From NCBI RefSeq assembly GCF_900167395.1, contig NZ_FUWK01000002.1, forward strand, positions 60,001-92,000: a DNA stretch of 32,000 nt, given 5' to 3'. This document shows positions 4,076 to 22,693 of the stretch, piece by piece; position 1 is the stretch's first letter; the number at the start of each line of letters is the position of its first letter. Origin of the DNA: Nitrosomonas europaea (GTDB lineage: Bacteria; Pseudomonadota; Gammaproteobacteria; Burkholderiales; Nitrosomonadaceae). The notes under the pieces are model-generated. The model was not told where the DNA came from, made no database searches, and saw only the letters and a program-made list of their open reading frames with translations. The translations under genes were made by a program, and so were the position numbers.

Positions 4076-5155
4076 ATGACTTCACCGTCACCTGACCAGG
4101 TCATTCGCCAGGAAATCCTTGCACTGTCAGCCTATCATGTCCCCCCTGCCAAGGATATGGTCAAGCTGGATGCAATGGAAAACCCCTACCGGTTGCCCCC
4201 TTTTTTATGTGAAGAAATCTCCCGGATAGCGGCAGACACATCCATCAATCGTTACCCTGATCCACACGCCGCCGCGCTCAAGGAAGTGCTCAGTACCACA
4301 TTATCCGTTCCGGCCGGAATGGAAATCATGCTGGGCAATGGTTCAGACGAAATCATTCAGATCATCATGCTGGCGGCAGCAAAGCCGGAAGCAAAGCTGC
4401 TGACGATCGAACCGGGATTTGCCATGTTCAAAATGATTGCTACATTCGCGAACATGCAGTATATCGGAATTCCCCTGAAACCTGATTTTTCGCTAGATAT
4501 CGACAGGATGCTCGCAGCAATCGAGCGCCATCAGCCTTCCGTCATATTCCTGGCCTACCCGAATAATCCGAGCGGCAATCTGTTCGATACCAGCGCTCTG
4601 GAAAAGATCATCGAAATATCCCCGGGACTAGTCGTAATCGATGAAGCCTATCATCCTTTTGCCGGAAAAAGTTTCATTGGCAGGCTTGCCGATTATCCCA
4701 ATCTGCTGGTCATGCGGACACTTTCGAAACTGGGACTGGCCGGACTCCGCCTGGGGCTCCTGGCCGGCAGACCGGAGTGGCTATCTCATCTGGAGAAACT
4801 GCGCCTGCCCTATAATGTCAATGTGATTACCCAGCTTGTTGCGACAAAAATCATGCAGCACTATGATGTGTTGCAGCAACAGGCAGATGCAATCAGACAA
4901 ACACGTACCAGATTACGCACTTTCCTGGAAAATCTGAATGGAATCGAGGTGTTCCCTTCGAATGCCAACTTCATTCTGTTCCGTCTCGATGGGGCCAGCC
5001 AGATTTTCAGATTGCTTCAGCAGCATGGCATTCTGGTGAAGAATCTTGACAACAGCCACCCCTTATTAAAAAATTGCCTCCGTGTAACGGTAGGCACACC
5101 TGAAGAGAATGATCGTTTCTGCAACACACTGCAAGACCTGATCGCAGGAAATTAA
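4076..5155 (+). CDS. hisC: Histidinol-phosphate aminotransferase
   Basis: 359-aa ORF with class-II aminotransferase features ([14 protein letters not shown], and [13 protein letters not shown] carrying the PLP lysine). First gene of the his block. Confidence 0.93.
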
Positions 5156-5190
5156 CCGGAAAACCGAACACGACATCCGTTCGAATTTAA

Positions 5191-5784
5191 ATGCTCATGC
5201 GTACAGCACAAGTCACCCGCAATACTCAGGAAACACAAATCACGGTAACGATCAACCTGGACGGCCAGGGAAAAGCGGAATTGGACAGCGGAGTTCCTTT
5301 CCTTGATCACATGCTCGATCAGATTGCCCGTCACGGCATGTTCGATCTGAGTGTTGCCGCAAAAGGTGATCTCCATGTCGATGCACACCATACAGTGGAA
5401 GATATCGGCATCACACTGGGCCAGGCGCTGAATCGTGCAGTCGCTGACAAGAAAGGACTCGTGCGCTACGGACATGCTTATGTACCTCTCGATGAAGCCT
5501 TGTCCAGAGTCGTCATCGATTTATCGGGCAGGCCCGGTTTGCAGTTCAACACCACATTCACACGCGCAGTCATTGGTAATTTCGATGTCGATCTGATCCA
5601 GGAATTCTTTCAAGGCTTTGTCAATCATGCCATGGTAACGCTACACATAGACAATCTGACCGGTAAAAATGCGCATCATCAGGCTGAAACCATTTTCAAA
5701 GCATTTGGCCGGGCGCTGCGTATGGCGGTAACAACCGACCCGCGCTGTGATAACCTTATCCCATCCACCAAAGGCGTGCTGTAG
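5191..5784 (+). CDS. hisB: Imidazoleglycerol-phosphate dehydratase
   Basis: 197-aa ORF with [30 protein letters not shown] and [15 protein letters not shown] motifs. It is monofunctional in length. Confidence 0.95.
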
Positions 5785-5814
5785 ACAAAACACCCTGAAC
5801 ATTCTGATACAAAC

Positions 5815-6453
5815 ATGAACTCGATTGCCGTCGTTGATTACGGAATGGGCAACCTGCGATCAGTATCCAAAGCACTGGAATATGTCGATTCATCTGCTGT
5901 CGTCACTGTAACCAGTGATCCCGAAACCATCCGATCTGCCGCACGCGTCGTTGTTCCCGGTCAGGGTGCGATGCCTCATTGCATGCAGGCGCTGGATGAC
6001 CAGGGTTTACGCGAATCAGTTATCGAGGCTGCTAAAAACAAGCCTTTCCTCGGTATCTGCCTTGGGTTGCAAATGCTGTTCGAGGAAAGTGAAGAAGGCA
6101 ATATTCGTGCACTGGGCATTCTGCCTGGCAGAGTCAAAAAACTGGAATCTACGGATACAGCCGATAGCGACATTCCGAAAATCAAGATCCCTCATATGGG
6201 CTGGAACCAGGTTCACCAGACTCTGGAGCACCCGTTATGGCACGGGATCGATACCGACACACGTTTTTACTTCGTTCACAGTTATTACGTGGCAACAGAT
6301 GAACCGCAAATAGTGGCAGGCAGCACCGAATATCCGGTTCCATTCACCTGCGCAGTGGCCAGGGATAATATTTTTGCCATTCAGTTTCACCCTGAGAAAA
6401 GTCATTCTGCAGGACTGGCGTTATTGAGTAATTTCCTGAAATGGACGCCCTGA
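5815..6453 (+). CDS. hisH: Imidazole glycerol phosphate synthase, glutamine amidotransferase subunit
   Basis: 212-aa ORF with VVDYGMGNLRSV, the catalytic Cys in LGICLGLQML, and FHPEKS. Confidence 0.95.
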   Translation: MNSIAVVDYGMGNLRSVSKALEYVDSSAVVTVTSDPETIRSAARVVVPGQGAMPHCMQALDDQGLRESVIEAAKNKPFLGICLGLQMLFEESEEGNIRALGILPGRVKKLESTDTADSDIPKIKIPHMGWNQVHQTLEHPLWHGIDTDTRFYFVHSYYVATDEPQIVAGSTEYPVPFTCAVARDNIFAIQFHPEKSHSAGLALLSNFLKWTP

Positions 6454-6521
6454 TAACATTCAGCTCTTTCCTTGTTTTTATCTTATTTTTCAACCCTGAT
6501 CATCAACCCAGATAAACCTGT

Positions 6522-7271
6522 ATGCTGATTATTCCTGCTATCGATCTGAAAGATGGACATTGTGTCCGACTGAAGCAAGGCATCATGGAAAATGCCACAG
6601 TATTCTCGGAAAATCCTGAAACAGTAGCACTGCACTGGCTGGATAACGGAGCACGTCAACTGCACCTGGTCGATCTCAATGGTGCATTTGCCGGAAAACC
6701 CAAAAATGGCGAAGCAATCCGTGCGATCGTCGAGGCTGTCGATGGCAGAATTCCAATCCAGCTGGGCGGAGGAATACGCGATCTGGAGACCATAGAATAC
6801 TATCTGGATAATGGCATCACCTACGTGATCATCGGAACGGCAGCAGTCAAAGTACCTGGTTTCCTGCACGATGCCTGCTATGCGTTTCCAGGCCAGATTA
6901 TGGTCGGGCTGGATGCCAAGAGTGGAAAAGTGGCCGTCGACGGCTGGTCCAAGGTAACCGGCCATGATGTCATCGATCTCGCTAAAAAATTCCAGGATTA
7001 CGGCGTGGAAGCAATCATCCATACCGATATCGGCCGCGATGGTATGCTCAGCGGGCTCAATATCGAAGCCACCGTGGAACTTGCTCAGGCACTGACGATT
7101 CCTGTCATCGCCAGTGGGGGTGTAACCAATCTGGATGACATCAGAAAATTGTGTGAAGTCCAGTCTGAAGGAATTACTGGCGTCATCACCGGCCGTGCGA
7201 TTTATCAGGGCTCACTTGATTTCAAAGAGGCTCAAGCCCTGGCAGATCAACTGGATGCAGCAACTATTTGA
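6522..7271 (+). CDS. hisA: 1-(5-phosphoribosyl)-5-[(5-phosphoribosylamino)methylideneamino]imidazole-4-carboxamide isomerase
   Basis: 249-aa ORF beginning [17 protein letters not shown], with [17 protein letters not shown] and SGGV motifs. Confidence 0.95.
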
Positions 7272-7370
7272 TCGGTTCAGTTATGTCCCATCCGAATATC
7301 ATTTGCACTCACAGCACATTTTTTACCCTGTCTCTCTTCTATTCAGCCTGCTTCTGACAATTTCTGATCA

Positions 7371-8147
7371 ATGGGATTAGCCAAACGTATCATCCCCTGT
7401 CTTGATATCAAAGATGGGCGCGTCGTCAAAGGAGTCAATTTTGTCTCGTTGCGGGATGCGGGAGACCCGGTCGAAATTGCCCGCAGCTATAATGAACAGG
7501 GCGCTGACGAGCTCGTTTTCCTCGATATTACCGCCAGCTCGGAAAATCGCGACTTAATTCTGCATATCGTCGAAAAAGTCGCCGCACAGGTGTTCATCCC
7601 ACTGACAGTAGGCGGAGGCGTCCGTAAGGCCGAAGATGTACGCAGGCTTTTGAACGCAGGTGCAGACAAAGTCAGCATCAACACCTCAGCGGTATTGAAT
7701 CCGATGCTGATCAAGGAATCAGCAGATCACTACGGCTCCCAGTGTATCGTGATCGCAATCGATGCCAGACAAATACCTGATGCAAATCCTGAATCTCCAC
7801 GCTGGGAAGTATTTACCCATGGCGGACGCAAACCCACTGGAATCGATGCAATTGAATGGGCTCAAAAAATACAAGCCCTGGGCGCCGGAGAAATTCTGCT
7901 AACCAGCATGGATCGTGATGGTACGCGTTCCGGATTCGATCTCACACTGACACGTGCAATCTCCGATTCAGTCGATTTACCGGTCATTGCAAGTGGTGGT
8001 GTCGGTCATCTGGATCATCTGGTGGAAGGTATTCTGGCAGGCCATGCCGATGCCGTACTGGCAGCAAGCATTTTCCATTATGGCGAGTACAGTATCCTAC
8101 AAGCCAAACAATATCTGTCATCGCACGGGATAGAAGTTCGCCTGTAA
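7371..8147 (+). CDS. hisF: Imidazole glycerol phosphate synthase, cyclase subunit
   Basis: 258-aa ORF with [35 protein letters not shown] and ASGGVG motifs. Confidence 0.95.
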
Positions 8148-8303
8148 CAAAATAGGATTATCTTTCCTTGATTCCTATATAACCCTAGCTTCAGCTCGAT
8201 CAGGAGTGCCCTTTTACCTGGCATTATTGCCCTTGCATTTTAAAAATACCCTTGAAACTGTTAAGATCGCCCGAAGAAACAAAAGAACACGTGGAGCACG
8301 TCA

Positions 8304-8693
8304 ATGACAGACAAGTGGCTTGACACAATCAACTGGTCGGCAGACGGCCTCATTCCAGCTATCGCACAAGATAAAAACAACGGTAAAATTCTGATGGTCG
8401 CCTGGATGAACCGCGAAGCACTCAAACGTACTGTCGAAAGCGGTGAAGCGGTTTACTGGTCACGCTCCAGAAAAAAACTGTGGCATAAAGGCGAGGAATC
8501 CGGGCATACCCAGAAAATCAGTGCGATCCATCTCGATTGCGATGAAGATATCCTTCTCCTCAGTGTGGAACAGAAAGGAGGAATTGCTTGCCATACAGGC
8601 AGACAAAGTTGCTTCTTCCGTCAATTGAAAAATGGAGAATGGGTCGTCACAGAACCTGTTATCAAAGACCCGTCACAAATTTATACCAAATGA
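8304..8693 (+). CDS. hisI: Phosphoribosyl-AMP cyclohydrolase
   Basis: 129-aa ORF with [35 protein letters not shown] and CHTG motifs. Confidence 0.93.
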
Positions 8694-11086: not shown

Positions 11087-11113
11087 TTGACATGACCATA
11101 GCGCTGTTATAGT
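11087..11113 (+). promoter_or_regulatory. Sigma70-like promoter of the riboswitch-btuB operon
   Basis: TTGACA (11087-11092), a 15-nt spacer, then TATAGT (11108-11113) preceded by TGT, which gives an extended -10. It lies immediately upstream of the riboswitch core. Confidence 0.5.
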
Positions 11114-11119
11114 CTGCGC

Positions 11120-11330
11120 CCCTTGTTTGAGGTGTCCCAGATGCATTTGCACGAGGGATGAAACGGGAAGCCGGTGCGCGCTGGAATCAGCCAGCGCAAT
11201 GCCGGCACTGCCCCCGCAACGGTAAATGAGTCAATGATCTGCACACGCCACTGTGCTGTATGGCACGGGAAGGCGCAGAATCAGGAAAACACAGCTTCCG
11301 CTCATAAGTCCGGAGACCGGCCTGAAGCAA
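11120..11330 (+). promoter_or_regulatory. Cobalamin (B12) riboswitch aptamer
   Basis: Conserved elements in the correct order: AAACGGGAAGCCGGTG (11161-11176), GCCACTG (11247-11253), GGGAAGGC, and the B12 box AGTCCGGAGACCGGCC (11307-11322). It sits in the leader of a TonB-dependent receptor. The outer boundaries are approximate. Confidence 0.85.
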
Positions 11331-11462
11331 TATCATGTTATTGCGGAGGGCAATACACGGCACCGAATCTCATTCCCGGTATTTAATCGTGCCCGGTTCC
11401 CTGCTGTTTCTCCGCAATCTGTTTACAACCCGATCATCGCGCGGGTGTGCGCGGAGGAAACA

Positions 11463-13301
11463 ATGTCCGAAAATCATGCTTCATCTGTACTGACTCTGTG
11501 GCTGGGAGCCAGTCTTTCTGCCCTTTCATGGGCAGAAGAAATCAGTTATCTCGAAAAACCAGTAGTCGTTACCGCCAGCCGTACCAATGAGGCTGCAGAA
11601 GATACGCTCGCCTCGGTTACCGTCATCACGCGAACTGATATCGAGCGCCAGCAAGCGCGCTCCATGCAGGATCTGCTGCACGGTATCGCAGGTATCAATA
11701 TCGCCAATACCGGCGGCCCTGGAAAATTGACCACACTTCTCCTGCGAGGGACAGAGTCTGACCACGTACTGGTTCTGGTCGATGGCATCAGAATGGGCTC
11801 CGCCACATCCGGATTTTCTGAAATCCAGAACTATCCGGTAGAACTGATCGATCGTATCGAAATCGTCCGGGGACCCCGATCCAGTCTGTATGGCCCGGAA
11901 GCCGTGGGAGGGGTAATCCAGATATTCACCCGCAAAGGTGGAAAAAAAGGATTGAAACCCACTCTCAGCTTCGGAGGTGGCAGCTACGGAACCATCAATG
12001 GCTCAGCCACCCTCTCCGGCAGCAGTGAACGTGCCTGGTTCAATCTCGGTATCAGCGGATCGGACACCAATGGCTTCAATGCCTGCAAAGGATCTTTCAG
12101 TGCGGGATGCTTCACCATCGAACCGGACAAGGATGGCTATCGCAACATCTCCGGCTCGGCTCGCGCTGGTTACCGTTTTGATAATGGATTGGATGTCGAA
12201 GCGAGTTTTTTACATACTGATGGTCATTACGAGTATGACGGCAGCTTTCAAAACAGAACTCAGCTGGCACAACAAGTATTCGGGGGAACAGCACGCTATT
12301 CACTCTTTGAACCCTGGCGTATCACGTTGACAGCGGGACGCAGCAATGAAGATTCCGATAATTTCAAGGAAAAGCTATTCACGACACGCTACCACGCCCG
12401 GCGCGATACGATCTCCTGGCAAAATGACATAACCATCACCCCGAATCAGCTTTTGACCATCGGTACGGATTATCTGTACGATCGTATCAACAGCTCGGAA
12501 AAATTCACCACCACTTCACGCTATAACTGGGGCGTATTTGCGCAACACCAGATTTCACTCGCAGCGCACAAACTGCAACTTTCTGTACGCCATGATGACA
12601 ACCAGCAATTTGGCAGTCAGGTAACCGGTGGCGCTTCCTGGGGCTATTCACTGACCGAACGGGTCAGGCTGACTGCCGGCTTTGGCAGCGCATTCAAGGC
12701 CCCTACTTTCAACGAACTGTATTTCCCCGGATTTGGCAATCCTGATCTCAAACCGGAAGATGCCCGCACGGTGGAACTGGGTGCAGCCGGACGGTTTGAC
12801 TGGGGCAACTGGTCACTCAACCTGTATGAAACCTGGATCGATGACTTGATCTCATACAATGCCGCAACATTCACTCCGGATAATATCGATAAAGCACGCA
12901 TACAAGGGCTGGAAGCTATCCTCAACACCGAAATCAAAGGCTGGCTGATTCAAACCAACCTCACTTTTCTTGACCCGCAAAATCGTTCCAAGGGAGCCAA
13001 TAAAGGTAATATCCTGCCCCGGCGCAGCAAGCAGGCTTTCCGGATCGATGCCAGTCGTCAGCTCGGTGATTTTGTTGTAGGAGCAATGTTTCTGGCAGAA
13101 ACCAATCGCTATGATGATCTGGCAAACAATCAGAAACTCGATGATTATGTCAAAGTTGACTTGCGAGCAGAATATCTGATCAATCCGCAATGGCGCATTC
13201 AGGGGCGGATCGAAAACCTGTTTGACAAAGACTATGAAACCGCTGCATTCTTCAACCAGCCCGGGCGCAACTTTTTTGTCACCCTGCGTTACCAACCATA
13301 G
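11463..13301 (+). CDS. btuB: TonB-dependent outer-membrane cobalamin receptor
   Basis: The start at 11463 (MSENHASS...) is preceded by GGAGGA. The product has a signal peptide, a TonB box (KPVVVTASR), a plug domain (RIEIVRGPRSSLYG) and a beta-barrel. It is controlled by the upstream B12 riboswitch. The track start at 11253 lies inside the riboswitch. Confidence 0.88.
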   Translation: MSENHASSVLTLWLGASLSALSWAEEISYLEKPVVVTASRTNEAAEDTLASVTVITRTDIERQQARSMQDLLHGIAGINIANTGGPGKLTTLLLRGTESDHVLVLVDGIRMGSATSGFSEIQNYPVELIDRIEIVRGPRSSLYGPEAVGGVIQIFTRKGGKKGLKPTLSFGGGSYGTINGSATLSGSSERAWFNLGISGSDTNGFNACKGSFSAGCFTIEPDKDGYRNISGSARAGYRFDNGLDVEASFLHTDGHYEYDGSFQNRTQLAQQVFGGTARYSLFEPWRITLTAGRSNEDSDNFKEKLFTTRYHARRDTISWQNDITITPNQLLTIGTDYLYDRINSSEKFTTTSRYNWGVFAQHQISLAAHKLQLSVRHDDNQQFGSQVTGGASWGYSLTERVRLTAGFGSAFKAPTFNELYFPGFGNPDLKPEDARTVELGAAGRFDWGNWSLNLYETWIDDLISYNAATFTPDNIDKARIQGLEAILNTEIKGWLIQTNLTFLDPQNRSKGANKGNILPRRSKQAFRIDASRQLGDFVVGAMFLAETNRYDDLANNQKLDDYVKVDLRAEYLINPQWRIQGRIENLFDKDYETAAFFNQPGRNFFVTLRYQP

Positions 13302-13310
13302 GATAAAAAT

Positions 13311-13892
13311 ATGCTGACACTACCATTACGACATCAATACCTGATCGGATCGATCCTGATCATTCTGATGATCGCCACACGTGAATATCATTTCGCTTCA
13401 TTACATACTCTGCCGGGAGCCTCCTGGGCGGTTTTCTTCCTGGCCGGTGTTTATCTCAGCTCAAGCTGGTCATTACTTGGGTTCCTGGTACTTGCCTGGA
13501 TACTTGATTTTTCAGCTTACTTTACTGCTGCAGGAAGTGATTTCTGCCTGACCTCAGCCTATATTTTTCTGCTGCCCGCCTACGGTGCACTCTGGGTTGC
13601 CGGCCGCTGGTTTGCAGCTCGTTATCAATTTTCATGGCGAGCGCTGGCATCCTTATCCATCAGCCTCCTGATCGGCGCGATGCTGTGTGAATTATTCTCC
13701 AGTGGCGGATTCTATTTCTTCTCCGGCCAATTTGAAGAAACCACATTTGCCGAATTCTGGCAGCGTGAATTGCACTACTTCCCGCTTTATCTCCAGTCCC
13801 TGCTGTTTTATGTCGGTACTGCGGCCACGATACATACCCTGTTCGTGCTGATTCATAAATCACGCCATCCTCAGATTAATGCCACCGGCTGA
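13311..13892 (+). CDS. Small 6-TM membrane protein, candidate BtuM-like (solitary ECF-S-component-like) cobalamin transporter
   Basis: 193 aa with about six hydrophobic segments. It lies between btuB and cobO in the riboswitch-controlled operon and overlaps the cobO start. His27, Asp66, Cys79, Tyr84 and Arg152 fall within one residue of positions I recall as conserved in Thiobacillus BtuM. This is recollection, not an alignment. Confidence 0.55.
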   Translation: MLTLPLRHQYLIGSILIILMIATREYHFASLHTLPGASWAVFFLAGVYLSSSWSLLGFLVLAWILDFSAYFTAAGSDFCLTSAYIFLLPAYGALWVAGRWFAARYQFSWRALASLSISLLIGAMLCELFSSGGFYFFSGQFEETTFAEFWQRELHYFPLYLQSLLFYVGTAATIHTLFVLIHKSRHPQINATG

Positions 13893-14505
13893 CAGCACAG
13901 ATATGGATGCGGACAAGGCGCAGCGTTATCGTTCGCGGATGCAGCGCCAGAAGGCGGTCGTGGATGCGGCGATTGTCCGCGCTGATAAAAGCAAAGGGCT
14001 GTTGCTGGTATTGACCGGCAACGGCAAAGGAAAATCGAGTTCTGCCTTCGGGATGGTTGCCCGCGCACTGGGACACGGCATGCGCGTGGGGGTTGCGCAA
14101 TTCATCAAAGGACGCTCCGATACCGGCGAGGAAGCTTTCTTCACACAGCAGAAAAATATCGTCTGGCATGTGCTGGGAGAAGGATTTACCTGGGATACAC
14201 AGGATCTCGCTCGTGACAGAGAAACCGCCCGCCGAGGGTGGTCAGTCGTACAAACCATGCTGCGCGATCCATCGATCGATCTGCTGATACTTGATGAACT
14301 CACCTACCCGCTCAAATTCGGCTGGCTGGAAATCAGCGAGGTACTGAGTGATCTTCAGAACCGGCCAGCCATGCAGCATGTCGTTATCACCGGCCGCGCC
14401 GCACCGGATACGCTATGTGGGGCAGCCGATACTGTCACCGAAATGCGTGACATCAAACATGCTTTTCAGGCTGGCATTCAGGCACAAACGGGGATCGATT
14501 TCTGA
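13879..14505 (+). CDS. cobO: Cob(I)yrinic acid a,c-diamide / cob(I)alamin adenosyltransferase
   Basis: 208-aa ORF with a P-loop-like LLLVLTGNGKGKSSSAFG, then GVAQFIKG and LILDELTY motifs of the CobO/BtuR family. An alternative start at 13903 is possible. Confidence 0.9.
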   Translation: MPPADSTDMDADKAQRYRSRMQRQKAVVDAAIVRADKSKGLLLVLTGNGKGKSSSAFGMVARALGHGMRVGVAQFIKGRSDTGEEAFFTQQKNIVWHVLGEGFTWDTQDLARDRETARRGWSVVQTMLRDPSIDLLILDELTYPLKFGWLEISEVLSDLQNRPAMQHVVITGRAAPDTLCGAADTVTEMRDIKHAFQAGIQAQTGIDF

Positions 14506-14701: not shown

Positions 14702-15040
14702 ATGCTCAGGCTTATACCCAATAAAGGACTGAAAAAGACGATAAACACGCTTACGGTTGCCGAAAAAGCCAGAATCAATCATCAGGATATCGAAGAACTG
14801 CTGCTGAGGTACCAAAGGAGCTGTCCCGAAGATGCCGCCAGGAACATAACCGAGGTCACGAATCCAAATCAGGAAAAGCATGAAGGCCTTAGGGTATTTG
14901 TCATCCAGACATGGATGGCGCTCATGGTGGCAAATTCCTACGGGCTTGAAACCTATCAGACTTTGAAAACATTCATGGACAGGCAAGGCTACAAAACACA
15001 ACCTGATTCCACATACATGGCAACAGAACAAAAAGACTGA
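14702..15040 (+). CDS. Hypothetical protein, orphan, possibly a gene remnant
   Basis: 112-aa ORF of protein-like composition in an AT-rich gap. No family recognised. It overlaps a second short ORF (14538-14732) in another frame and an antisense ORF of unprotein-like composition. Confidence 0.25.
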   Translation: MLRLIPNKGLKKTINTLTVAEKARINHQDIEELLLRYQRSCPEDAARNITEVTNPNQEKHEGLRVFVIQTWMALMVANSYGLETYQTLKTFMDRQGYKTQPDSTYMATEQKD

Positions 15041-15079: not shown

Positions 15080-15436
15080 TTATTTCGATGAGGTTCCGGT
15101 TGCTTTGTCCGTTTCCTCAGGGATATAAATCATGGAGCCATCTTTCAGCCGATAGGCAACACCGGCTCGTACCCCTTCACCCTGCCCGATTTCACCGGTA
15201 CTCTTATAGTGCTTCATTTCTTCCCCCTTGCGCACGATCATTTCCATCTGTGGAGTATCAGGATTGCGGATAACTACCATGTCCTGAGCAGCAAAAGGGT
15301 TGAGTGGATTTTCGAGTATCGCGATCAGCAGGCCAGCAATGATCACCAGAAATACGTCAATGATGTTGACCACTGACAGAATCGGATCGTCACTATCCTC
15401 ATCGTCCAGAATACGGGTCAGCAGCCGGTCAGCCAT
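15080..15436 (-). CDS. DUF2149-type single-pass membrane protein (ExbD/TolR-like partner of the adjacent MotA/ExbB channel)
   Basis: 118 aa with an acidic N-terminus, one TM segment (ILSVVNIIDVFLVIIAGLLIAIL) carrying an embedded Asp27, and a soluble C-terminal domain. Its start overlaps the stop of the upstream MotA/ExbB-like gene by 8 nt. Confidence 0.75.
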   Translation of the reverse strand: MADRLLTRILDDEDSDDPILSVVNIIDVFLVIIAGLLIAILENPLNPFAAQDMVVIRNPDTPQMEMIVRKGEEMKHYKSTGEIGQGEGVRAGVAYRLKDGSMIYIPEETDKATGTSSK

Positions 15437-15971
15437 GTATTGCCTCCTGCGGAGTAATTACGTGAGCATTGTTGCTGTCAGCAATGAAAGCAGATCGCTG
15501 GTTACCATTGAGCAATATATTAAGTTCGGTCAGCAGCCACCGCCGCCGCATGGAAAGAACAACATAGCTGATGGAAGCAGTCACCAGTGCCACAATCACC
15601 GCTGAAAACGCCACCACCAGGTTTTCTGCAATCTCTTGGGTATTGCCCGCTGCCACAGCTACCAGTGCCGGGCCCATCGGAATCATAGTTGCTACTAATC
15701 CCAGCATCGGTGCAACACGGCTGGTAAGGCGCAATGGCTCCAGTAGTTTGAGCAGATGGAGTTCTATCGCCTCTGTGTTGGCTTGCGGGTGGCGCTCACG
15801 GTAATGTTGCAAAGACTGTCTTACCGAAAAATGCAATGAGCGCAATATCAGATCAAATAGCAACATACCTAACGCAAACAATGAAAGCACAAACATGATG
15901 CACAATATGATCAGCACGGGCGTCAGAAAGAAGCGGGAAATTTCATATAAAAATGATTCAAGTGCGTTCAT
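15429..15971 (-). CDS. MotA/TolQ/ExbB family proton-channel protein
   Basis: 180 aa with three TM segments and an ExbB-like signature region (APMLGLVATMIPMGPALVAVAAG). A GAGGT Shine-Dalgarno lies upstream. Confidence 0.8.
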   Translation of the reverse strand: MNALESFLYEISRFFLTPVLIILCIMFVLSLFALGMLLFDLILRSLHFSVRQSLQHYRERHPQANTEAIELHLLKLLEPLRLTSRVAPMLGLVATMIPMGPALVAVAAGNTQEIAENLVVAFSAVIVALVTASISYVVLSMRRRWLLTELNILLNGNQRSAFIADSNNAHVITPQEAIHG

Positions 15972-16067
15972 CAGCAGTTACCTCATGTTCGGAAACATGG
16001 AAAATGAATACAATGTTTATGCCTGTTTGAATGTGCGCGTGCGCACTTCGTGCCAGGTGCCCCACGC

Positions 16068-19000
16068 CTACCAAAAAAAGCCACTCACTATGATCAGGAT
16101 CAGTAACCGGGCATAGGTCCATATCAGTTGAATTGCTTCCCCGGCCGGTGATACTTCACTCATCTGCTGCCCACTGATATTTTCAGTTTCTCCGGTGACT
16201 TGCGGCGCGGAATCAGCCGGTACAGCATCTGATAGCGTGGTGGTTGCTGATTCTGCCGGTTTATTGTCCAGTGCAGCCATACCAAAATTGGTCATCAGCT
16301 CTTGTACATAAGCCTTGAAAGTTTCGTTACCGGTATGGATATCATGCTGTTGTGCCAGCTCGATATAGATGGTTATCAGTTCCTGAATGGTTTGCTCACC
16401 GGCCTGCCAGTAATCCTTGCGAATTGCTTCCAGCATACGCTCAACAATTTGTGCCAGTGCTGCCGGATGGTTATGCTCGAACCACTCACGTAAACCAAGC
16501 TGGTAATGGTCGTTTATATAAATCTCATGAAAAGATTGCCATTGATCATCCCTTACGATGTTGCGATCCATGACCTGCCAGCCCCAAAAATTATTGATCG
16601 TATTCAACACTTGTAAAGTTCCGCTGTAACCTTCTTTCATCATCTCGGCCAGCCAGTTTGGATGCTGATAGACTGATCGCAGCTCGGTTGCGAGGAATTT
16701 ATCAGCCGCTTCCAGTTGTGCGCGGTTCGGATCACGCATATTAGAAATATATAATTGCGGCGCCGCACCATCGAGATGCCGGACAGCCATGGAAATACCA
16801 CCCAGATATTCAAACGGATGATCGGTATCGAGCAGCCCGCGCAGATTGGATGAGCGGGAAAATACTGTTGCACGTGTTCCGCGCAGATGCTCGGCATAAG
16901 CATTCACTTCACCGTTTTTGCTATCTGTGTATTTCTTGCTCCAGCTGGCTGTACTCGGACCATATGTCCAGGACATATTGGACAGATACTGTCGTTCGAG
17001 CTTGCCATCGCCTTCCTCCCACCGATTGGATGCCAGTGTTGCATCTGTCAGGCCAGTACCATAATTTCCACTTTCATTACCAAAGATACGGGTATGCGCG
17101 ATCGCACCAGCATCTTCCCTGGATAACCCTCGTGCCAGCATCTCCGCCAGAATGCGCAAGCTGTTGGTGCGTACGAAATTTTGTTCAGCCGGCTCATCTT
17201 CTGCAGCCAACATCACGATCGCCTCGTTGAGACGTTCCATGACATTGGGGAACTGATCACGATACAGACCGGTAATCGATATCACCGGATCGATACGTGG
17301 ACGGCCCAGTTCTGCCAATGGAATTTTTTCCATACCGGTTACACGACCGCCTTCATCCCAGATCGGCCGCACTCCCAGGGCATACAAGATCTGTGCTTCC
17401 AACATGCTGAGGTGGCGCATGGTTTCTGTACTTCACAGCGTAAAAGCAAGCTTGTCCGGAAATTGTCCATCGTGAGTCGACTGATAGGTCAGAATCAGAT
17501 GTTCCAGTGATTCCTTACCGGCCTCATATGCTGCACGGGTCGGGATGCGTGAGGGATCAAAGCCATACATATTGCGTCCCGTTGGCAAGGCATCCGGATT
17601 ACGGATCGGGTCTCCTCCGTAGGAAGGATCAATCCAGCGCGCCGCCAATGCGCGCAGCACCGATTCTATTTCGCCGGCTGTACGAAAGGTGGCAGCAAAT
17701 ACGCGGCCACATTCAGCGAGTTCAACGCGTATTTTGTTTTTTAATGTATCCAGTGATTTGTCACTCAGTACCCATTCATCGACGAAGTGATACGGTGCAG
17801 ATGCCTGTATCTGCCGGTAATCTTCGGTAAACACCTCTCCAGCATTATTGAAGCCAAACGCTTCGTAAAGTGGCTGCCCCAGCATTTGCATGACGGTGCT
17901 GATCATATGGGCGCGCTCCATATCCTGCCCCAGCACATGCAGCCCGAGCGGCTGCTGCGCAATGGCCAAATGTTCCAGATAATCCTCGATTTCGCGCAGA
18001 AAATCAGGAAAGCTACGTTCCAGATCAGCAACTTTCCACGACATATCCTGATGAATGTTCATTCTGATCACCAAATCAATAATCTGCTTGCGCGCGTTTT
18101 CTTTCACCAGTCCTTCATCAAGAGATTCATATTCACGAATCGCATCATTGATCTGAGCGAAATCATCAGACAATCCGGCAGGGGAAAAAGGTGGTGTCTG
18201 ATGACTGACGATCACTCCCCGGCCGCGTCGTTTAACATGTATCGCCTCCGCGATGTTGTCCACAATGTACGGATAAATCACCGGCACATTACCTGCCAGT
18301 AGATTGGGATCATCGAATGCCCACAATCCTCTCTCCTTGCCGGGTGTCCATTCTTGCGTGCCATGGGTGCCAAAATGAACGATGGCATGTGCGGGTTGCT
18401 GTGTACGTATCCACAGGTAGGTAGCAAGATAAAAATGATTGACCGGAATTTTCGTGTCGTGAAACAACTTCTCTTCGTTTTCATCCGCGATTTCTCCGCG
18501 CGGCGGTTGTGGCAGTACTGCCAGTCGGCCGAGTTTCAGGCGCGGGATCACAAAACCGGTTGTACCGTCCTCGTGCTGTACCACCCAGGGGCTTCTTTCC
18601 GCTTTTCCCCAGTATGTATCGATCCGTTCGCGTACTTCCTCAGGCAGTGTTGCAAACCATTCCCTGTATGTGACCAGCGGCAGAAAATCCCAGTGAGGCG
18701 TCTGCATCAGTTCCGGCAGGGAGTCTTTGCGATAAACCGGCCGCAGCATCTCGCCGACAGCCGCTATGACCTGATCCTCACTGACGGTATCAAACGCGTA
18801 ACCTTCATCGCGTAACCGTTCTGTCAGGTGAGTGATTGAACGGGGAACATTCAGGTTGGATGCACCCTGGTTATGTTCTCCCGGAGGATGATTCCAGAAT
18901 AATAATGCGACGTTTTTTTCTGCATTCGGCAGCGTTTTCAACCGAGCCAGATTGATGAGTTTGCCGATGAGCAGATCCATTTGTTCCGGCATCGACACCA

Positions 19001-20166
19001 GCTCTCCATCTTCGTTCGTGGTAACCAGTACCGGATCCTGTAATCCGATATATTCAGCGACAGTCAGCATAAAAGGCAGCATAAAGCTGCTGATACCGGT
19101 TTTATCCTCGGCATAATCCATTGCGGTATTGCATGAAATTGATTACCGGGATATCAAGCGATCGATACCAGGCTTTGCGCTCATCCGGGTTGATTCCCAG
19201 AAATGTGTTGACCATCAGGACATCTAAAATGGTTTTTCCATCGAGCATAATCAGAGGTTCATCAGCCACATCCATCGGTTGTGAAGCGGGGTTGGGAAAA
19301 CCGCTGCTGTCAGCTGTACCGATTGTTTGTACAGCTATTCGTATGTTTCCCGGCATTTTTCCCTCAGATCTTCTACCCTGTTGCTCATCCTGTTCCGGGG
19401 AACGGGTGGTTGATCTGGAACGAGAACGGCTGGCCCGGTAAAAAATCAGTGGCACTCCTTCAGCGCGTTCAATAGCTGCGATCGTTTCATCAAGTTGACG
19501 TGTTTGCCCATCGCTGAGGTAACTGCTGGCAGTTTCCATTCCGATGATCGGATTATCACGCCAGGGCTGGTTATGTCGCTGTTGCCACCAGTCCAGATAC
19601 TCGGGGAGAGAAGCAAATACCATCTGTTCAGCATCCGGATGATAAATACCGCTGTCAGGTAGTTCAATCGGTGGCGCTGCAGCCGATACATCCTCGCCTG
19701 TCAGCCAGGTTTTCAGGTAGTGCATCATGCGTTCGCGGTTGACATGTGTACCGCTGATGTAATAAGTGAATAACTGACGAGCCTGTTCTTCTTCCATCCG
19801 TTGCGCTTGCATGCGCAGCGACGGGTTAAACCGGTGGACACTCAAGACAGGAATTGTCAGAGTACGCAGTTGTTCACCTGCCACCTGCCCGACCTGCGAT
19901 ATGGCTTCGTTGTTAGGAGCATCAATGATGACAAAAGCTGCACCATTGAGTACTCGTGACACACCTGTTTCACCTTCTCGATCCACTTGCGTCCATGCCA
20001 GATCCAAATCTTGATCACGTGCAGTGGCTTCCATTAGCTTGAATTTATGTTCCAGTACAAAACTTGTACTCAATACGGCAACCTTCGTTGCTGTGGCAAC
20101 CAATGGTGATAAGCAGATTAGTAATCCCAGCAACAGGCGGCATTTCATCAGGTATCTCTCATTCAT
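16068..20166 (-). pseudogene. CobN/ChlH-family chelatase-like gene (HmuS/'BtuS'-like, exported), disrupted by one frameshift and one in-frame TGA
   Basis: Three consecutive ORFs (19102-20166, 17433-19121, 16068-17420; 354+562+450 aa) together cover a CobN-length protein. ORFs 1 and 2 overlap in different frames, so a frameshift lies within 19102-19143. ORFs 2 and 3 share a frame and are separated only by TGA at 17433-17435, giving ...LAFTL*STETMRHLSMLEAQILYALGVRPIW. That position is the conserved Trp of the CobN/ChlH 'LWGT(D/E)xx(R/K)' segment. The N-terminus (MKCRLLLGLLICLSPLVATA) looks like a signal peptide and the C-terminus (LIWTYARLLILIIVSGFFW) like a membrane anchor. The true start is probably 20148. 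Confidence 0.8.
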
Positions 20167-20207
20167 TCAGGGGACGTAAATGAGAATTATTGGTGTTGAA
20201 GAGATTT

Positions 20208-20239
20208 GCGTCAATGTGGCAAATTGTCGCACCAGTAAT
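20208..20239 (-). promoter_or_regulatory. Copy B of the shared 32-nt motif, overlapping a sigma70-like promoter upstream of the CobN-like gene
   Basis: The + strand gcgtcaatgtggcaaattgtcgcaccagtaat matches copy A at 28 of 32 positions. On the - strand the motif contains TTGACG (20209-20214), followed by a 17-nt spacer and AATAAT (20186-20191), about 20-40 nt upstream of the candidate start codons. Confidence 0.5.
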
Positions 20240-20368
20240 GATCAGTAGCCTAAAAATAGCGTAATTCATGTACAGATCAAATCCGACAAAACATCAGGAT
20301 CTCACCAGCGATCAGGCTGAATACATCAGCAAATTTTTGTCTGATATCACGTGCTTTAAGCAGAATTA

Positions 20369-22591
20369 TCAGAATTTATAGGAAACATACCCCATGAATG
20401 TCCTGGGCATACCTGGTGTAAAACTGACTCGTGAACCACTCGCATCTTTGTTGACATCAACTGCGTAGCGTTTATCGAATAAATTCTGGACATTAAATGT
20501 TAATCCCCAGTGTTTTCGGTCATATCCTACGGTGAGATTGGTCAGGAAATGATAACCACCATGCCGTTCAGTATTGGCGTTATCAGTAAAATAATCACTT
20601 TGTCCACGTGTCTCGATTCTCCCGTGCCATCCGCTCAAATGCCGGTAAGTCGTATAAACAAAATACATGTGCTCAGGAAAACGAGGCACCTGGTTACCGG
20701 AACGGTTGGCATTGATCGTGGTACGCTGATTGGTAGCAGGATCAATAATTGTCAGCGGCTCAGTCAATCTGTTGAATTTCAGATCCGTATAAGTATAACT
20801 GGCACCAACTTCGAACCCGGAGGTGAAGGCATAGTTACCAAAAAATTCAAAACCGTTCTTACTGGTTTTGCCCGCATTGGTATACAGTGTTTGCAGGTTC
20901 TGCACAAAAGAAATGATTTCATTACTGACATCGGTATGATAGCCAGTGAGATCAAACGACCAGTTACGTCCGCGTCCCTTGAACCCGGCTTCATAATTGA
21001 GATGACCGGAGGCCTTCAGCGTACGTCCAAATTCAACCGCATTCTGGACTTCACTATCTGCCGGAACCTGGTTGGCATGTGCAACTGATGCATACACATT
21101 GATCAGATCAGTAGCGCGATACGTTACCGCTGCTTTGGGCGCAAACAGATCGTATTTTTCCCTGACCTGAATCAAACCACGCCCCGGTGTATAGCGCCCA
21201 CTTGCAAAATCGTAACGCTGGAATTCATTGCGCTCGATATCGAAGCTGACCTGATCAAAGCGCATTTGCAGATCGACGGTGAGACGATCCAATGGAGAGA
21301 GGCTTTCCAGAAAATAGACCCCCCATAAATCATTGGTGGATTTGCTGCGGGAATTGATCTGCCCTTTACGATCAGAAAGAGTGGATATGATACGTCCGCT
21401 TCCCGGCACCGTCAGTACGTCAGCGTAAGCATACTGTAATGCACCATCATTCCAGTTACGCCGCCAGGTACCACCAATTACCATCGATCCGGGTATACCA
21501 AATAAAGAGTGCGTATAGATTCCTTCAAGATCAAAACCAAAATTCCGCTCCCAACCATCCGTGACATTGATTTGTCCAGTAACCGGATGAAACTGTTTCC
21601 ATTGGTTGTAATAGATACGCGGCTTGAACAGCCAATCCCCCGCACGATGTTCCAGGCGACTGTTCATAAACAATATCTGGGAATCTCGTGCGGAATTTTT
21701 CCAGGGATCCTGTGTTTCCAGTGCTTTCCCAGTATTACGATATTGGGCATATTGCTCCCGGCTGAGCGAGCCTGGCAGATTTAACTTGACATCACTGTAA
21801 GTAATCTCGGTTTCAAGCAAGCTCGATTCCCCCAGCTGCCAGCCATGTTTGAGTCCCGCATTAGTGCTGCTAAAGCGATTATGTCTCCGCCAGTCGTTAT
21901 CGGTATGGCGGCGAGAAAAGGTAAAAGCAAGCGCATGTTCATTGAAAACCTTACCGAAACGAGTATGCAGGTTATGTGTGCCCCAGTTCCCCACACCGCC
22001 ACGGATAACATTGTGCTGATCATCGAATGCGGAGCGTGAAATGATGTGAATGGTGCCGCCGGCTGTCCCTGCGCTGTAAAGATCTCCCGGCCCGCGTGTC
22101 ACTTCGATCCGTTCAACATCATCCGGATCAACAAAATCGAGTCGTCCAAAACTGTCTGGATCGAGTATCGGTACGCCATCGCGCAGCAGATTGATCTCCC
22201 GCACACCAAATTGCGCTTTCAATCCTGCACCACGGATCGAGATTTTGGCGTCATAAGCATTATTATTACTCTCGATGCGTAAACCCGGCACCTGACCCTG
22301 AATAGCATCTTTGATATTAAACATGCGCACATCTTTAATCCGTTTTTCATCTACTACACTGATCGACTGCGGTACTTCTTTGGTAGTACGCGCTTCGCGC
22401 GTGGCAGTAACACTGATGGTATCGAACTGTGCCGGCTGTTCAGGTGAAAGTTGTTGTGCAAATAAAGGAAGTGCCGGTAACCAGAACATCAGACAGGAGA
22501 ACCATTTCCATGCAGAAATTCTTGCAGGATATATTCGATGAATAAGCCAGTCCAATGATGTATTTTTGTCACAACCACGCCAAACCTTCAT
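20369..22591 (-). CDS. TonB-dependent outer-membrane receptor (HmuR-like position in the cluster; substrate unknown)
   Basis: 740 aa with a long signal region, a TonB box (DTISVTATRE), a plug (RIEVTRGPGDLYSAGTAGGTIHI), a beta-barrel and a C-terminal ...YVSYKF. A GGAGAAGG Shine-Dalgarno lies upstream of the 22591 start. Confidence 0.88.
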   Translation of the reverse strand: MKVWRGCDKNTSLDWLIHRIYPARISAWKWFSCLMFWLPALPLFAQQLSPEQPAQFDTISVTATREARTTKEVPQSISVVDEKRIKDVRMFNIKDAIQGQVPGLRIESNNNAYDAKISIRGAGLKAQFGVREINLLRDGVPILDPDSFGRLDFVDPDDVERIEVTRGPGDLYSAGTAGGTIHIISRSAFDDQHNVIRGGVGNWGTHNLHTRFGKVFNEHALAFTFSRRHTDNDWRRHNRFSSTNAGLKHGWQLGESSLLETEITYSDVKLNLPGSLSREQYAQYRNTGKALETQDPWKNSARDSQILFMNSRLEHRAGDWLFKPRIYYNQWKQFHPVTGQINVTDGWERNFGFDLEGIYTHSLFGIPGSMVIGGTWRRNWNDGALQYAYADVLTVPGSGRIISTLSDRKGQINSRSKSTNDLWGVYFLESLSPLDRLTVDLQMRFDQVSFDIERNEFQRYDFASGRYTPGRGLIQVREKYDLFAPKAAVTYRATDLINVYASVAHANQVPADSEVQNAVEFGRTLKASGHLNYEAGFKGRGRNWSFDLTGYHTDVSNEIISFVQNLQTLYTNAGKTSKNGFEFFGNYAFTSGFEVGASYTYTDLKFNRLTEPLTIIDPATNQRTTINANRSGNQVPRFPEHMYFVYTTYRHLSGWHGRIETRGQSDYFTDNANTERHGGYHFLTNLTVGYDRKHWGLTFNVQNLFDKRYAVDVNKDASGSRVSFTPGMPRTFMGYVSYKF

Positions 22592-22661
22592 AAAAACCTT
22601 CTCCCTTATTCCTGTTAAAACAGTTACCAGTAGAAATAAGGATGCTGCATAGATTTAAGAT

Positions 22662-22693
22662 GCGTCAATGTGACAAATTGTCACATCAATAAT
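22662..22693 (-). promoter_or_regulatory. Copy A of the shared 32-nt motif, containing a perfect 19-bp palindrome (candidate operator) upstream of the TonB-dependent receptor
   Basis: The + strand gcgtcaatgtgacaaattgtcacatcaataat contains ATGTGACAA-A-TTGTCACAT (22668-22686), a perfect 9-1-9 inverted repeat about 70 nt upstream of the receptor ATG. Confidence 0.55.

Follow-up and report, generated by a model that had tools for sequence, protein, structure and literature searches.

How a protein with the fold of the CobN/ChlH chelatases might work in a compartment where ATP is absent is the question raised by a four-gene cluster of Nitrosomonas europaea. The cluster lies at positions 15080-22591 of the 32,000-nucleotide (nt) stretch analysed here (contig NZ_FUWK01000002.1, positions 60,001-92,000; hereafter the window). 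It is transcribed from the minus strand in the order TonB-dependent receptor, CobN-like gene, MotA/ExbB-like gene, and DUF2149 gene, with the CobN-like gene broken into three open reading frame (ORF) pieces. Pfam matches were obtained for all four genes and are well beyond chance (Table 1), which bears out the initial annotation of these co-oriented genes. In the order of transcription, the three pieces matched the CobN-Mg_chel profile with E-values of 1e-14, 2e-145, and 1e-106, and covered positions 2-118, 179-759, and 765-1089 of its 1090 positions. We read the locus, with a probability of roughly 0.6, as the decayed remnant of a module that is widespread in Proteobacteria and corresponds to hmuR-S-U-V of Bacteroidota. 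In the intact relatives, the TonB-dependent receptor would bring a metal chelate, probably a different one in each clade, into the periplasm. The protein with the class I chelatase fold, exported by a cleavable signal peptide and tethered in the inner membrane by its C-terminal helix, would process the chelate there without ATP. By analogy with HmuS, the reaction is most likely metal removal at a His/Glu plus Asp-His..Glu site. That the ExbB-like and DUF2149 proteins form a dedicated stator, driven by the proton-motive force (PMF) and working with the (de)chelatase rather than the receptor, is a possible but tentative part of this reading.

The CobN-like gene of the window is a pseudogene, and its three lesions are fixed in this Nitrosomonas lineage. 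One lesion is a frameshift and two are in-frame stop codons (Table 1). The Trp codon lost in lesion 2 was retained in 71 of 74 family sequences, and the frame past the stop codon of lesion 3 runs on as AWGTWHEVRTRTFKQA to the next stop, matching the basic tail of orthologs. After repair, the product of ~1384 amino acids (aa) is colinear with the intact orthologs of a Nitrosomonas sp. SJ624 locus (L009, 1415 aa) and of L202, the closest metagenome ortholog (1375 aa), with 72-82% identity. The CobN-like gene was a single uninterrupted ORF in L202 and in all 80 related genome loci examined. An ENA metagenome contig (L204) was 100% identical to the window over 7701 nt, lesions included, and a JGI contig (L205) carried all three lesions together with an extra 26-nt deletion corresponding to window positions 16170-16195. 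Scaffold gap aside, L205 and the window differed over 7.7 kb only inside the pseudogene. The extra deletion is consistent with a second population in which decay is ongoing, or with an assembly artefact. Sequencing error, selenocysteine, and a programmed frameshift were considered as causes of the lesions and rejected, because there are three independent lesions, two of them nonsense changes at conserved Trp and Gln codons, and because independent assemblies show all three again, while every other gene of the window retains its full length. The receptor, MotA-like, and DUF2149 genes have the same full length as their L202 counterparts. An identical copy of the MotA-like protein was found in 108 blocks of the public collection, and the DUF2149 protein was 99% identical to one in a metagenome-assembled genome of Nitrosomonas sp. 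Since three lesions inactivate the (de)chelatase, the module is very probably non-functional in this lineage, despite an intact receptor gene, intact channel genes, and two preserved promoter motifs.

Table 1. Genes, lesions, and promoter elements of the cluster (positions in the window; TM, transmembrane)
Feature	Position	Strand	Description	Match
TonB-dependent receptor gene	20369-22591	minus	740-aa ORF, intact	Pfam Plug 2e-21, TonB_dep_Rec barrel 1e-38
CobN/HmuS-like pseudogene	16017-20166	minus	ORF pieces 19102-20166, 17433-19121, and 16068-17420, plus cut-off tail 16017-16067	Pfam; NCBIfam NF004644
MotA/ExbB-like gene	15429-15971	minus	Three-TM proton-channel subunit, 180 aa, intact	Pfam PF01618 2.4e-6
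DUF2149 gene	15080-15436	minus	Single-pass protein, 118 aa, intact	Pfam PF09919 1.8e-28
Lesion 1	19115-19130, near 19121-19125	minus	11-nt deletion relative to L202, CAATACCGTAACGGCGACCGTGCGGAATAT versus CAATACCGCAATGGATTAT; frameshift	
Lesion 2	17433-17435	minus	In-frame TGA for TGG (Trp) of KLAF(S/T)LWSTETMR	
Lesion 3	16068-16070	minus	TAG for CAG (Gln) at the cytoplasmic end of the C-terminal TM helix, WQAWRTRR	
25-nt motif, first copy	22661-22685	minus	TGTGACAATTTGTCACATTGACGCA; 17-nt palindrome abutting a TTGAC -35-like element, upstream of the receptor gene	
25-nt motif, second copy	20207-20231	minus	TGCGACAATTTGCCACATTGACGCA; upstream of the CobN-like gene	
Sigma-70-like promoter	20214-20186	minus	TTGACG-17-AATAAT; overlapped by the second motif copy	

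We compared the cluster with the hmuYRSTUV operons of the Bacteroidota Porphyromonas gingivalis and Bacteroides thetaiotaomicron. HmuS of B. thetaiotaomicron is a membrane-bound, NADH-dependent, ATP-independent heme de-chelatase that converts heme to protoporphyrin IX and Fe(II) (PMC12583661), and its His-538 is essential. The order receptor, membrane-anchored CobN-like protein whose body is periplasmic, MotA/ExbB-family protein (HmuU), and DUF2149 protein (HmuV) is common to both systems, and neither has an AAA+ partner. The parallel had been drawn in the initial annotation, with HmuS as the CobN-like component; the HmuU and HmuV correspondences and the cited 'BtuS metalloporphyrin salvage' annotation also proved correct, and the de-chelatase activity of HmuS has now been shown. 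At the sequence level, the C-terminal catalytic half of the CobN-like protein scored 216 bits against HmuS (PDB 9d26) and 131-144 bits against CobN/ChlH, whereas the central part was equidistant from the two. The HFG(T/A)HG motif (His-538) and Glu-577 are preserved, as VHFGTHGTQEW and DNIAEAIHVKRR align to HmuS residues 534-539 and 577, and both positions were invariant in 74 family sequences; they are not discriminating, because they are common to the whole superfamily. The equivalent of D1208-H1209..E1212 is present in the window protein, whereas canonical CobN has DDxxQ there. Within the corresponding LSLDHxxEFMGG region (window, SRSSNLRGLLDTDHPFEYLGG), the D, H, E, and GG residues and S1199 are kept, while Q1198 is replaced by Ser and W1202 by Arg.

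The two systems also differ. The window has counterparts of R, S, U, and V, but the six-gene hmuYRSTUV set is incomplete: no HmuY hemophore gene was found upstream and no HmuT, since only 96 nt separate the CobN-like and MotA-like genes. The N-terminus of the window protein looks like a cleavable signal peptide, whereas that of HmuS is an anchor. In addition, the window receptor is YncD/PqqU-like, the host is a betaproteobacterium, and the gene is a pseudogene.

An envelope location of the CobN-like protein had been proposed earlier, and the pattern behind it turned out to be common across orthologs. By hydropathy and motif inspection, the repaired N-terminus (MNERYLMKCRLLLGLLICLSPLVATA/TK) combines a basic n-region with a hydrophobic core of 13 residues and an AxA site, and a signal-peptide pattern starting from an ATG was found in 60 of 73 orthologs (for example, MKRLFLCALLALVGPWAQA/ADK). 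A C-terminal hydrophobic helix reached at least 1.8 in a 19-residue window in 43 of the 73, usually followed by a basic tail, and most of the remaining orthologs fell just under that value. The tail (window positions 16017-16260; the last ~95 residues of orthologs) consists of a linker, a motif, 10-25 residues, the TM helix, a Gln, and a basic tail. A Pro/Ala-rich linker and the motif (V/I)xG(Q/M)x(L/M)xx(V/I), such as VxGQxLxEV, precede the TM helix in at least 60 of 74 sequences, with all clades represented. The linker recalls the spacer of TonB. Judging from these features, the body of the protein is predicted to be periplasmic and C-terminally tethered to the inner membrane, and the channel pair may dock at the motif. 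HmuS and BtuS1/2 have likewise been described as membrane-tethered proteins with a periplasmic body.

Automatic annotation takes the protein for a genuine cobaltochelatase CobN of cobalamin biosynthesis, a reading that also has the public names and the adjoining B12 salvage operon on its side. The best model was indeed NF004644, 'cobaltochelatase subunit CobN', to which the pieces matched with 210 + 808 + 603, ~1621 bits in sum (cut-off, 1248), but this name is not evidence of function, because the equivalog evidently describes the envelope clade. The window protein shares PF02514, the six-domain layout, and the invariant HFGTHG histidine with CobN-CobS-CobT and ChlH-ChlI-ChlD; those class I chelatases are cytoplasmic, AAA+-dependent, and metal-inserting, whereas the window protein is predicted to be exported and anchored, lacks an AAA+ neighbour, and is accompanied by a proton-channel pair. 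Among the ORFs of the window, the part of this genome that was in view, none resembled ChlI/ChlD or CobS/CobT. The same partners had been named in the initial annotation as what would overturn its proposal, and we looked for them around the relatives: the 10-kb flanks of 73 related loci contained 41 ORFs with a Walker-A motif and a length of at least 250 aa, and none of these matched Mg_chelatase, CobS, CobT, or VWA. An archaeal CobN retrieved in the same homolog list (P0095, Archaeoglobaceae) was of the canonical type and had a ChlD-like neighbour. There are, moreover, no cob biosynthesis genes and no riboswitch on the cluster, the catalytic half is closer to HmuS, and the gene is broken, yet the lineage persists. 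A role in cobalamin biosynthesis is thus very improbable and already contradicted by the evidence in hand.

We next turn to the spread of the cluster. With one genome taken per GTDB species, at least 575 relatives were confirmed, and the best 80, all from Proteobacteria, were examined. Among the 66 loci with a complete CobN-like gene and at least 1 kb downstream, 65 held a MotA-like and a DUF2149 gene in the same cluster as the CobN-like gene, so that the association suspected earlier is near absolute. In one locus (L018), the pair immediately precedes the CobN-like gene. Five loci (L066, L035, L040, L059, and L076) have an insert of 0.9-2.1 kb between the CobN-like and MotA-like genes; in L066, the insert (13036-14100) codes for a protein of secreted appearance (354 aa from stop to stop), in the place that hmuT takes in Bacteroidota. 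The occurrence in a proteobacterial chromosome, which had been thought notable, is not: the architecture was present in at least 80 species-level genomes and in the published PA1922-PA1925 genes of Pseudomonas aeruginosa. It is widespread, already known from two systems, and not new.

Of 71 loci, 49 had a TonB-dependent receptor gene directly upstream of the CobN-like gene and 13 had a TonB gene there. A receptor belongs to the cluster in ~87% of loci when the 13 further upstream behind TonB are added to the 49; the receptors behind TonB were called from ORF size (~780-930 aa), with Pfam confirmation in L006 only. In those 13 loci (14 by a hidden Markov model (HMM) census), the order is receptor, ExbB, ExbD, TonB, CobN-like, MotA-like, and DUF2149. 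These upstream sets (L002, L004-L008, L010, L019, L021, L022, L029, L037, and L063) form seven-gene operons with an ExbB of 141 aa. Pfam matches of the canonical set (L004, L006, and L019) were 1.6e-29 for ExbB (PF01618) and 5.1e-21 for ExbD (PF02472), along with TonB (PF03544). Two further loci (L016 and L017) have the canonical ExbB-ExbD-TonB trio directly after DUF2149. Sixteen loci in total therefore hold a canonical set besides the MotA-like/DUF2149 pair in one cluster. In L009, the closest named relative, multicopper-oxidase and cytochrome c genes (5016-8222) and no receptor gene lie between pepN and the CobN-like gene, so that the presence of a receptor in the cluster varies even within the genus.

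These arrangements bear on what the channel pair does. Its members could be ExbB/ExbD paralogs that energise the cluster receptor through a TonB encoded elsewhere, leaving the CobN-like protein to act alone. This is the published model for HmuU/V and PA1924, and it agrees with the match of the MotA-like protein to Pfam MotA_ExbB, with the ExbD-like TM helix and Asp of DUF2149, and with the presence of a receptor in most clusters. The sixteen loci with a complete canonical Ton set, however, still keep the extra pair, which makes it unlikely that the pair is just the energiser of the receptor. The tie of the pair to the CobN-like gene is also tighter than that to any receptor type, as the receptors are YncD-like, CirA-like, or heme-type, or are absent as in L009, and neither sequence nor fold searches revealed the ExbD periplasmic domain in DUF2149. 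On balance, we regard an energiser of the receptor as rather doubtful.

The sequences of the pair were examined in the same light. The MotA/ExbB-like protein scored 27.8 bits against PF01618 (cut-off, 22.9), far weaker than the canonical ExbB of related loci. DUF2149, a small family of 514 clusters at 50% identity, has a TM Asp (Asp27) that was invariant in 33 sequences within the motif DDPILSVVNIxDVFLV. The AlphaFold2 model comprises a TM helix and a five-strand domain (pLDDT 67.5, moderate). No ExbD/TolR relatives were found in a PDB profile search, which returned chance-level matches only, and an ExbD HMM built from the related loci gave no match to the DUF2149 ORFs, which matched Pfam DUF2149 only and not PF02472. 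Like the TonB-ExbB-ExbD, TolQ-TolR, and MotA-MotB stators, the pair combines a channel subunit with a single-pass partner carrying an invariant TM Asp. Unlike in those stators, the periplasmic domain of DUF2149 is unrelated to ExbD/TolR by sequence and fold search, and no TonB is encoded in the window. The candidate client, moreover, is a C-terminally anchored enzyme, whereas TonB is N-terminally anchored, and sixteen relatives keep both a Ton set and the pair. The MotA-like and DUF2149 genes of the window overlap by 8 nt, which suggests translational coupling.

The enzyme is favoured as the client of the pair because the pair is tied to it and not to a receptor type and persists beside a complete Ton system, and because DUF2149 lacks the ExbD periplasmic domain while a motif and a helix near the membrane are conserved in the enzyme. 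The MotA-like/DUF2149 pair would then be a PMF stator whose client is the CobN-like enzyme and not TonB, replacing, as put forward in the initial annotation, the ChlI/D or CobS/T AAA+ motor; the comparison of loci lends this specific proposal indirect support, but we hold it to be unlikely. Proton flow would drive the conformational cycle of the enzyme, that is, substrate loading, macrocycle distortion, or product release. The coupling had been described as unresolved in the initial annotation, and papers of 2025-2026 still call the role of the pair unclear.

The relatives differ in ways that may concern the substrate. In the family alignment, three clades split at the position of HmuS His-1209/Glu-1212 (residues 1105-1125 of the repaired window protein), with DHxxE in 43 of 74 members and the CobN-type DDxxQ in 30. 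Clade A, which includes the window (..LLDTDHPFEYLGG), has DHxxE and receptors of various types, and a Ton set of its own is frequent. Its sister, clade Z (..LSTDHPFEYLGG), has DHxxE and CirA-like receptors and corresponds to PA1922-PA1925. Clade H (..LTTDDPFQYLGG) has DDxxQ, as in canonical CobN, and its receptors passed the NCBIfam heme/hemoglobin-receptor cut-offs in the two loci tested (L044 and L046). The window receptor is 82% identical to that of the intact L202 cluster; among solved structures, it is closest to YncD and to PqqU, a PQQ transporter (1.7e-39 and 4e-39, both over the full length), and not to heme or B12 receptors. Because receptor types vary between clades, the enzyme-channel-DUF2149 trio is the invariant core and the receptor is exchangeable. 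The trio could accordingly be pictured as a portable de-chelation engine into which clades would plug heme-type, CirA-type (Zur), or YncD/PqqU-type receptors.

In the Pseudomonas zinc literature, the cluster is viewed as an importer of metal ions (Zn2+ or Co2+) in free or loosely bound form, with the CobN-like protein serving for periplasmic binding and hand-off. PA1922-PA1925 is Zur-regulated and has a Zur site, and loss of znuA induces it 44- to 147-fold. The window shares with it the identical four-gene order of receptor, CobN-like, MotA/ExbB-family, and DUF2149 genes and the same DHxxE motif. We scanned the 80 related loci with TGTTATNNNATAACA, allowing up to two mismatches, and read the upstream regions of the window and L202 directly. 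Nine Zur-like boxes were found in clade Z, each upstream of the receptor gene and ~2 kb upstream of the CobN-like gene. In 8 of 73 loci, genes for COG0523 (CobW-type) GTPases, metallochaperones typical of zinc starvation, were located within 10 kb of the cluster. By contrast, the scan found no Zur-like box upstream of the cluster in the clade of the window, and reading found none in the window's two upstream regions. The window further differs from PA1922-PA1925 in having its own 25-nt motif at two promoters and a YncD-like instead of a CirA-like receptor, and its central region is ~43-46% identical to clade-Z proteins. Residues of the tetrapyrrole cavity in common with HmuS are conserved, one clade is paired with heme-type receptors, and a chelatase fold of 1300-1400 aa is unusual for ion hand-off. 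Import of a metal ion as such is therefore a quite improbable account of the family.

Several observations weigh against an enzyme of the HmuS kind powered by the channel pair. By the criteria for the HmuS heme de-chelatase family (Nath et al. 2025, PMC12583661), the methionine-rich insertion (domain IV, 22-120 residues) is absent: residues 428-483 of the query (55 aa) span HmuS 713-933 (220 aa), whereas the alignment to Mycobacterium tuberculosis CobN is contiguous. The site-1 heme ligands are replaced as well, with Met-79 of HmuS corresponding to Pro of IIDAPN and His-254 to Leu of NTFLGIN in a profile of 26 N-terminal domains aligned to HmuS 68-293 (E 4e-8); a PDB search with the single sequence of the N-terminal piece did not reach HmuS, and the 26-sequence profile was needed. 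As these HmuS-specific features fail, we file the protein as HmuS-like and not as a member of the HmuS family. The match proposed in the initial annotation thus stands for the architecture but not for strict family membership. A tetrapyrrole substrate is not established for the window system, because its receptor is of the YncD/PqqU type. Since the search for AAA+ partners covered the window and the 10-kb flanks, a distant partner may be encoded elsewhere in the genome. As for the stator, an hhalign comparison of DUF2149 with the ExbD of related loci paired the TM helix only, Asp on Asp, over 19 columns (E 1.2e-3, probability 19%), and a Foldseek search of the DUF2149 model (pLDDT, predicted local distance difference test, as above) against the PDB returned nothing at E<=0.001. 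Among published findings, soluble HmuS was partly active without HmuU and HmuV, and a btuS1 btuS2 double mutant of Bacteroides fragilis still de-chelated heme. The roles published for HmuU/V and for PA1924/25 are conjectural, namely energising the receptor, transport across the inner membrane, and modulation of HmuS; the first two, as drawn for HmuU/V, do not agree with a stator for the enzyme.

The control of the cluster in the window's clade appears to lie elsewhere than in the Zur regulon. The 25-nt motif occurs twice in the window (Table 1), with the consensus TG(T/C)GACAATTTG(T/C)CACATTGAC, also given as TG(T/C)GACAATTTG(T/C)CACATTGACGCA, and the promoter-motif sequence TGTGACAATTTGTCACA is a candidate protein-binding element. 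Both copies are present in L202 (2765 and 5217), and L009 has the copy before the CobN-like gene (8533-8549). A CRP site (TGTGA-N7-TCACA) was considered as the identity of the palindrome and not assigned, the spacing being off by one. Control by Zur or Fur was rejected for this clade, in which no Zur-like box was found (related loci scanned, window read directly) and whose motif is neither a Zur nor a Fur box. A cobalamin riboswitch was likewise rejected, as none precedes the cluster in the window or in 12 sampled loci. The exact 19-mer of the motif was also found on at least 119 metagenome contigs (L081-L199), many of them small and phage-like. The copies there are sometimes in tandem, 47-66 nt apart, and on phage-like contigs often follow a terminator-like hairpin. 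The genes downstream of them are heterogeneous and include receptors, a PEP-CTERM protein, a LuxR-type regulator, and many small phage-like ORFs.

A separate B12 salvage operon is located next to the cluster on the plus strand (11113-14505) and consists of a cobalamin riboswitch (11113-11339), btuB, a 193-aa ORF, and cobA. Its position had been considered worth following up, but such adjacency was found in only one other of ~75 loci (L035, where a riboswitch-cobA unit at 16140-17111 follows DUF2149) and is probably coincidental. The mechanical start of the btuB ORF, a GTG at 11253, falls within the riboswitch, so that the real start lies further downstream; other assemblies call a product of 612 aa. 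The 193-aa ORF (13311-13892, plus strand) between btuB and cobA has no Pfam or NCBIfam match. Between cobA and DUF2149 there is a 112-aa ORF (14702-15040, plus strand), called as a gene in other assemblies and without a family match. The remaining genes of the window are housekeeping genes: ispH, hisCBHAF, hisIE, HinT, tatABC, pepN, metG, a Mrp/ParA-type NTPase, and dCTP deaminase. Further ORFs encode BCCP, a DAO oxidoreductase, and a cupin. The metG-pepN...CobN-like synteny is in common with L009.

The fixed pseudogene indicates that this Nitrosomonas lineage no longer needs the function of the enzyme, and the biological weight of the window copy is low; the point of interest is the family. 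It joins two literatures that do not cite each other, those on the Hmu system of Bacteroidota, with HmuS as a proven anaerobic heme de-chelatase, and on the Zur-regulated PA1922-PA1925 cluster. The census also yields test systems, namely intact seven-gene operons that hold a canonical Ton set and the extra pair, such as that of Hydrogenophaga taeniospiralis (L006). If the pair does power the enzyme, proton-driven stators would have a new kind of client, and it would become clear how a chelatase fold can work where ATP is absent. It might also explain the poor turnover of HmuS in vitro, where the soluble recombinant protein without its partners performs only 1-2 turnovers.

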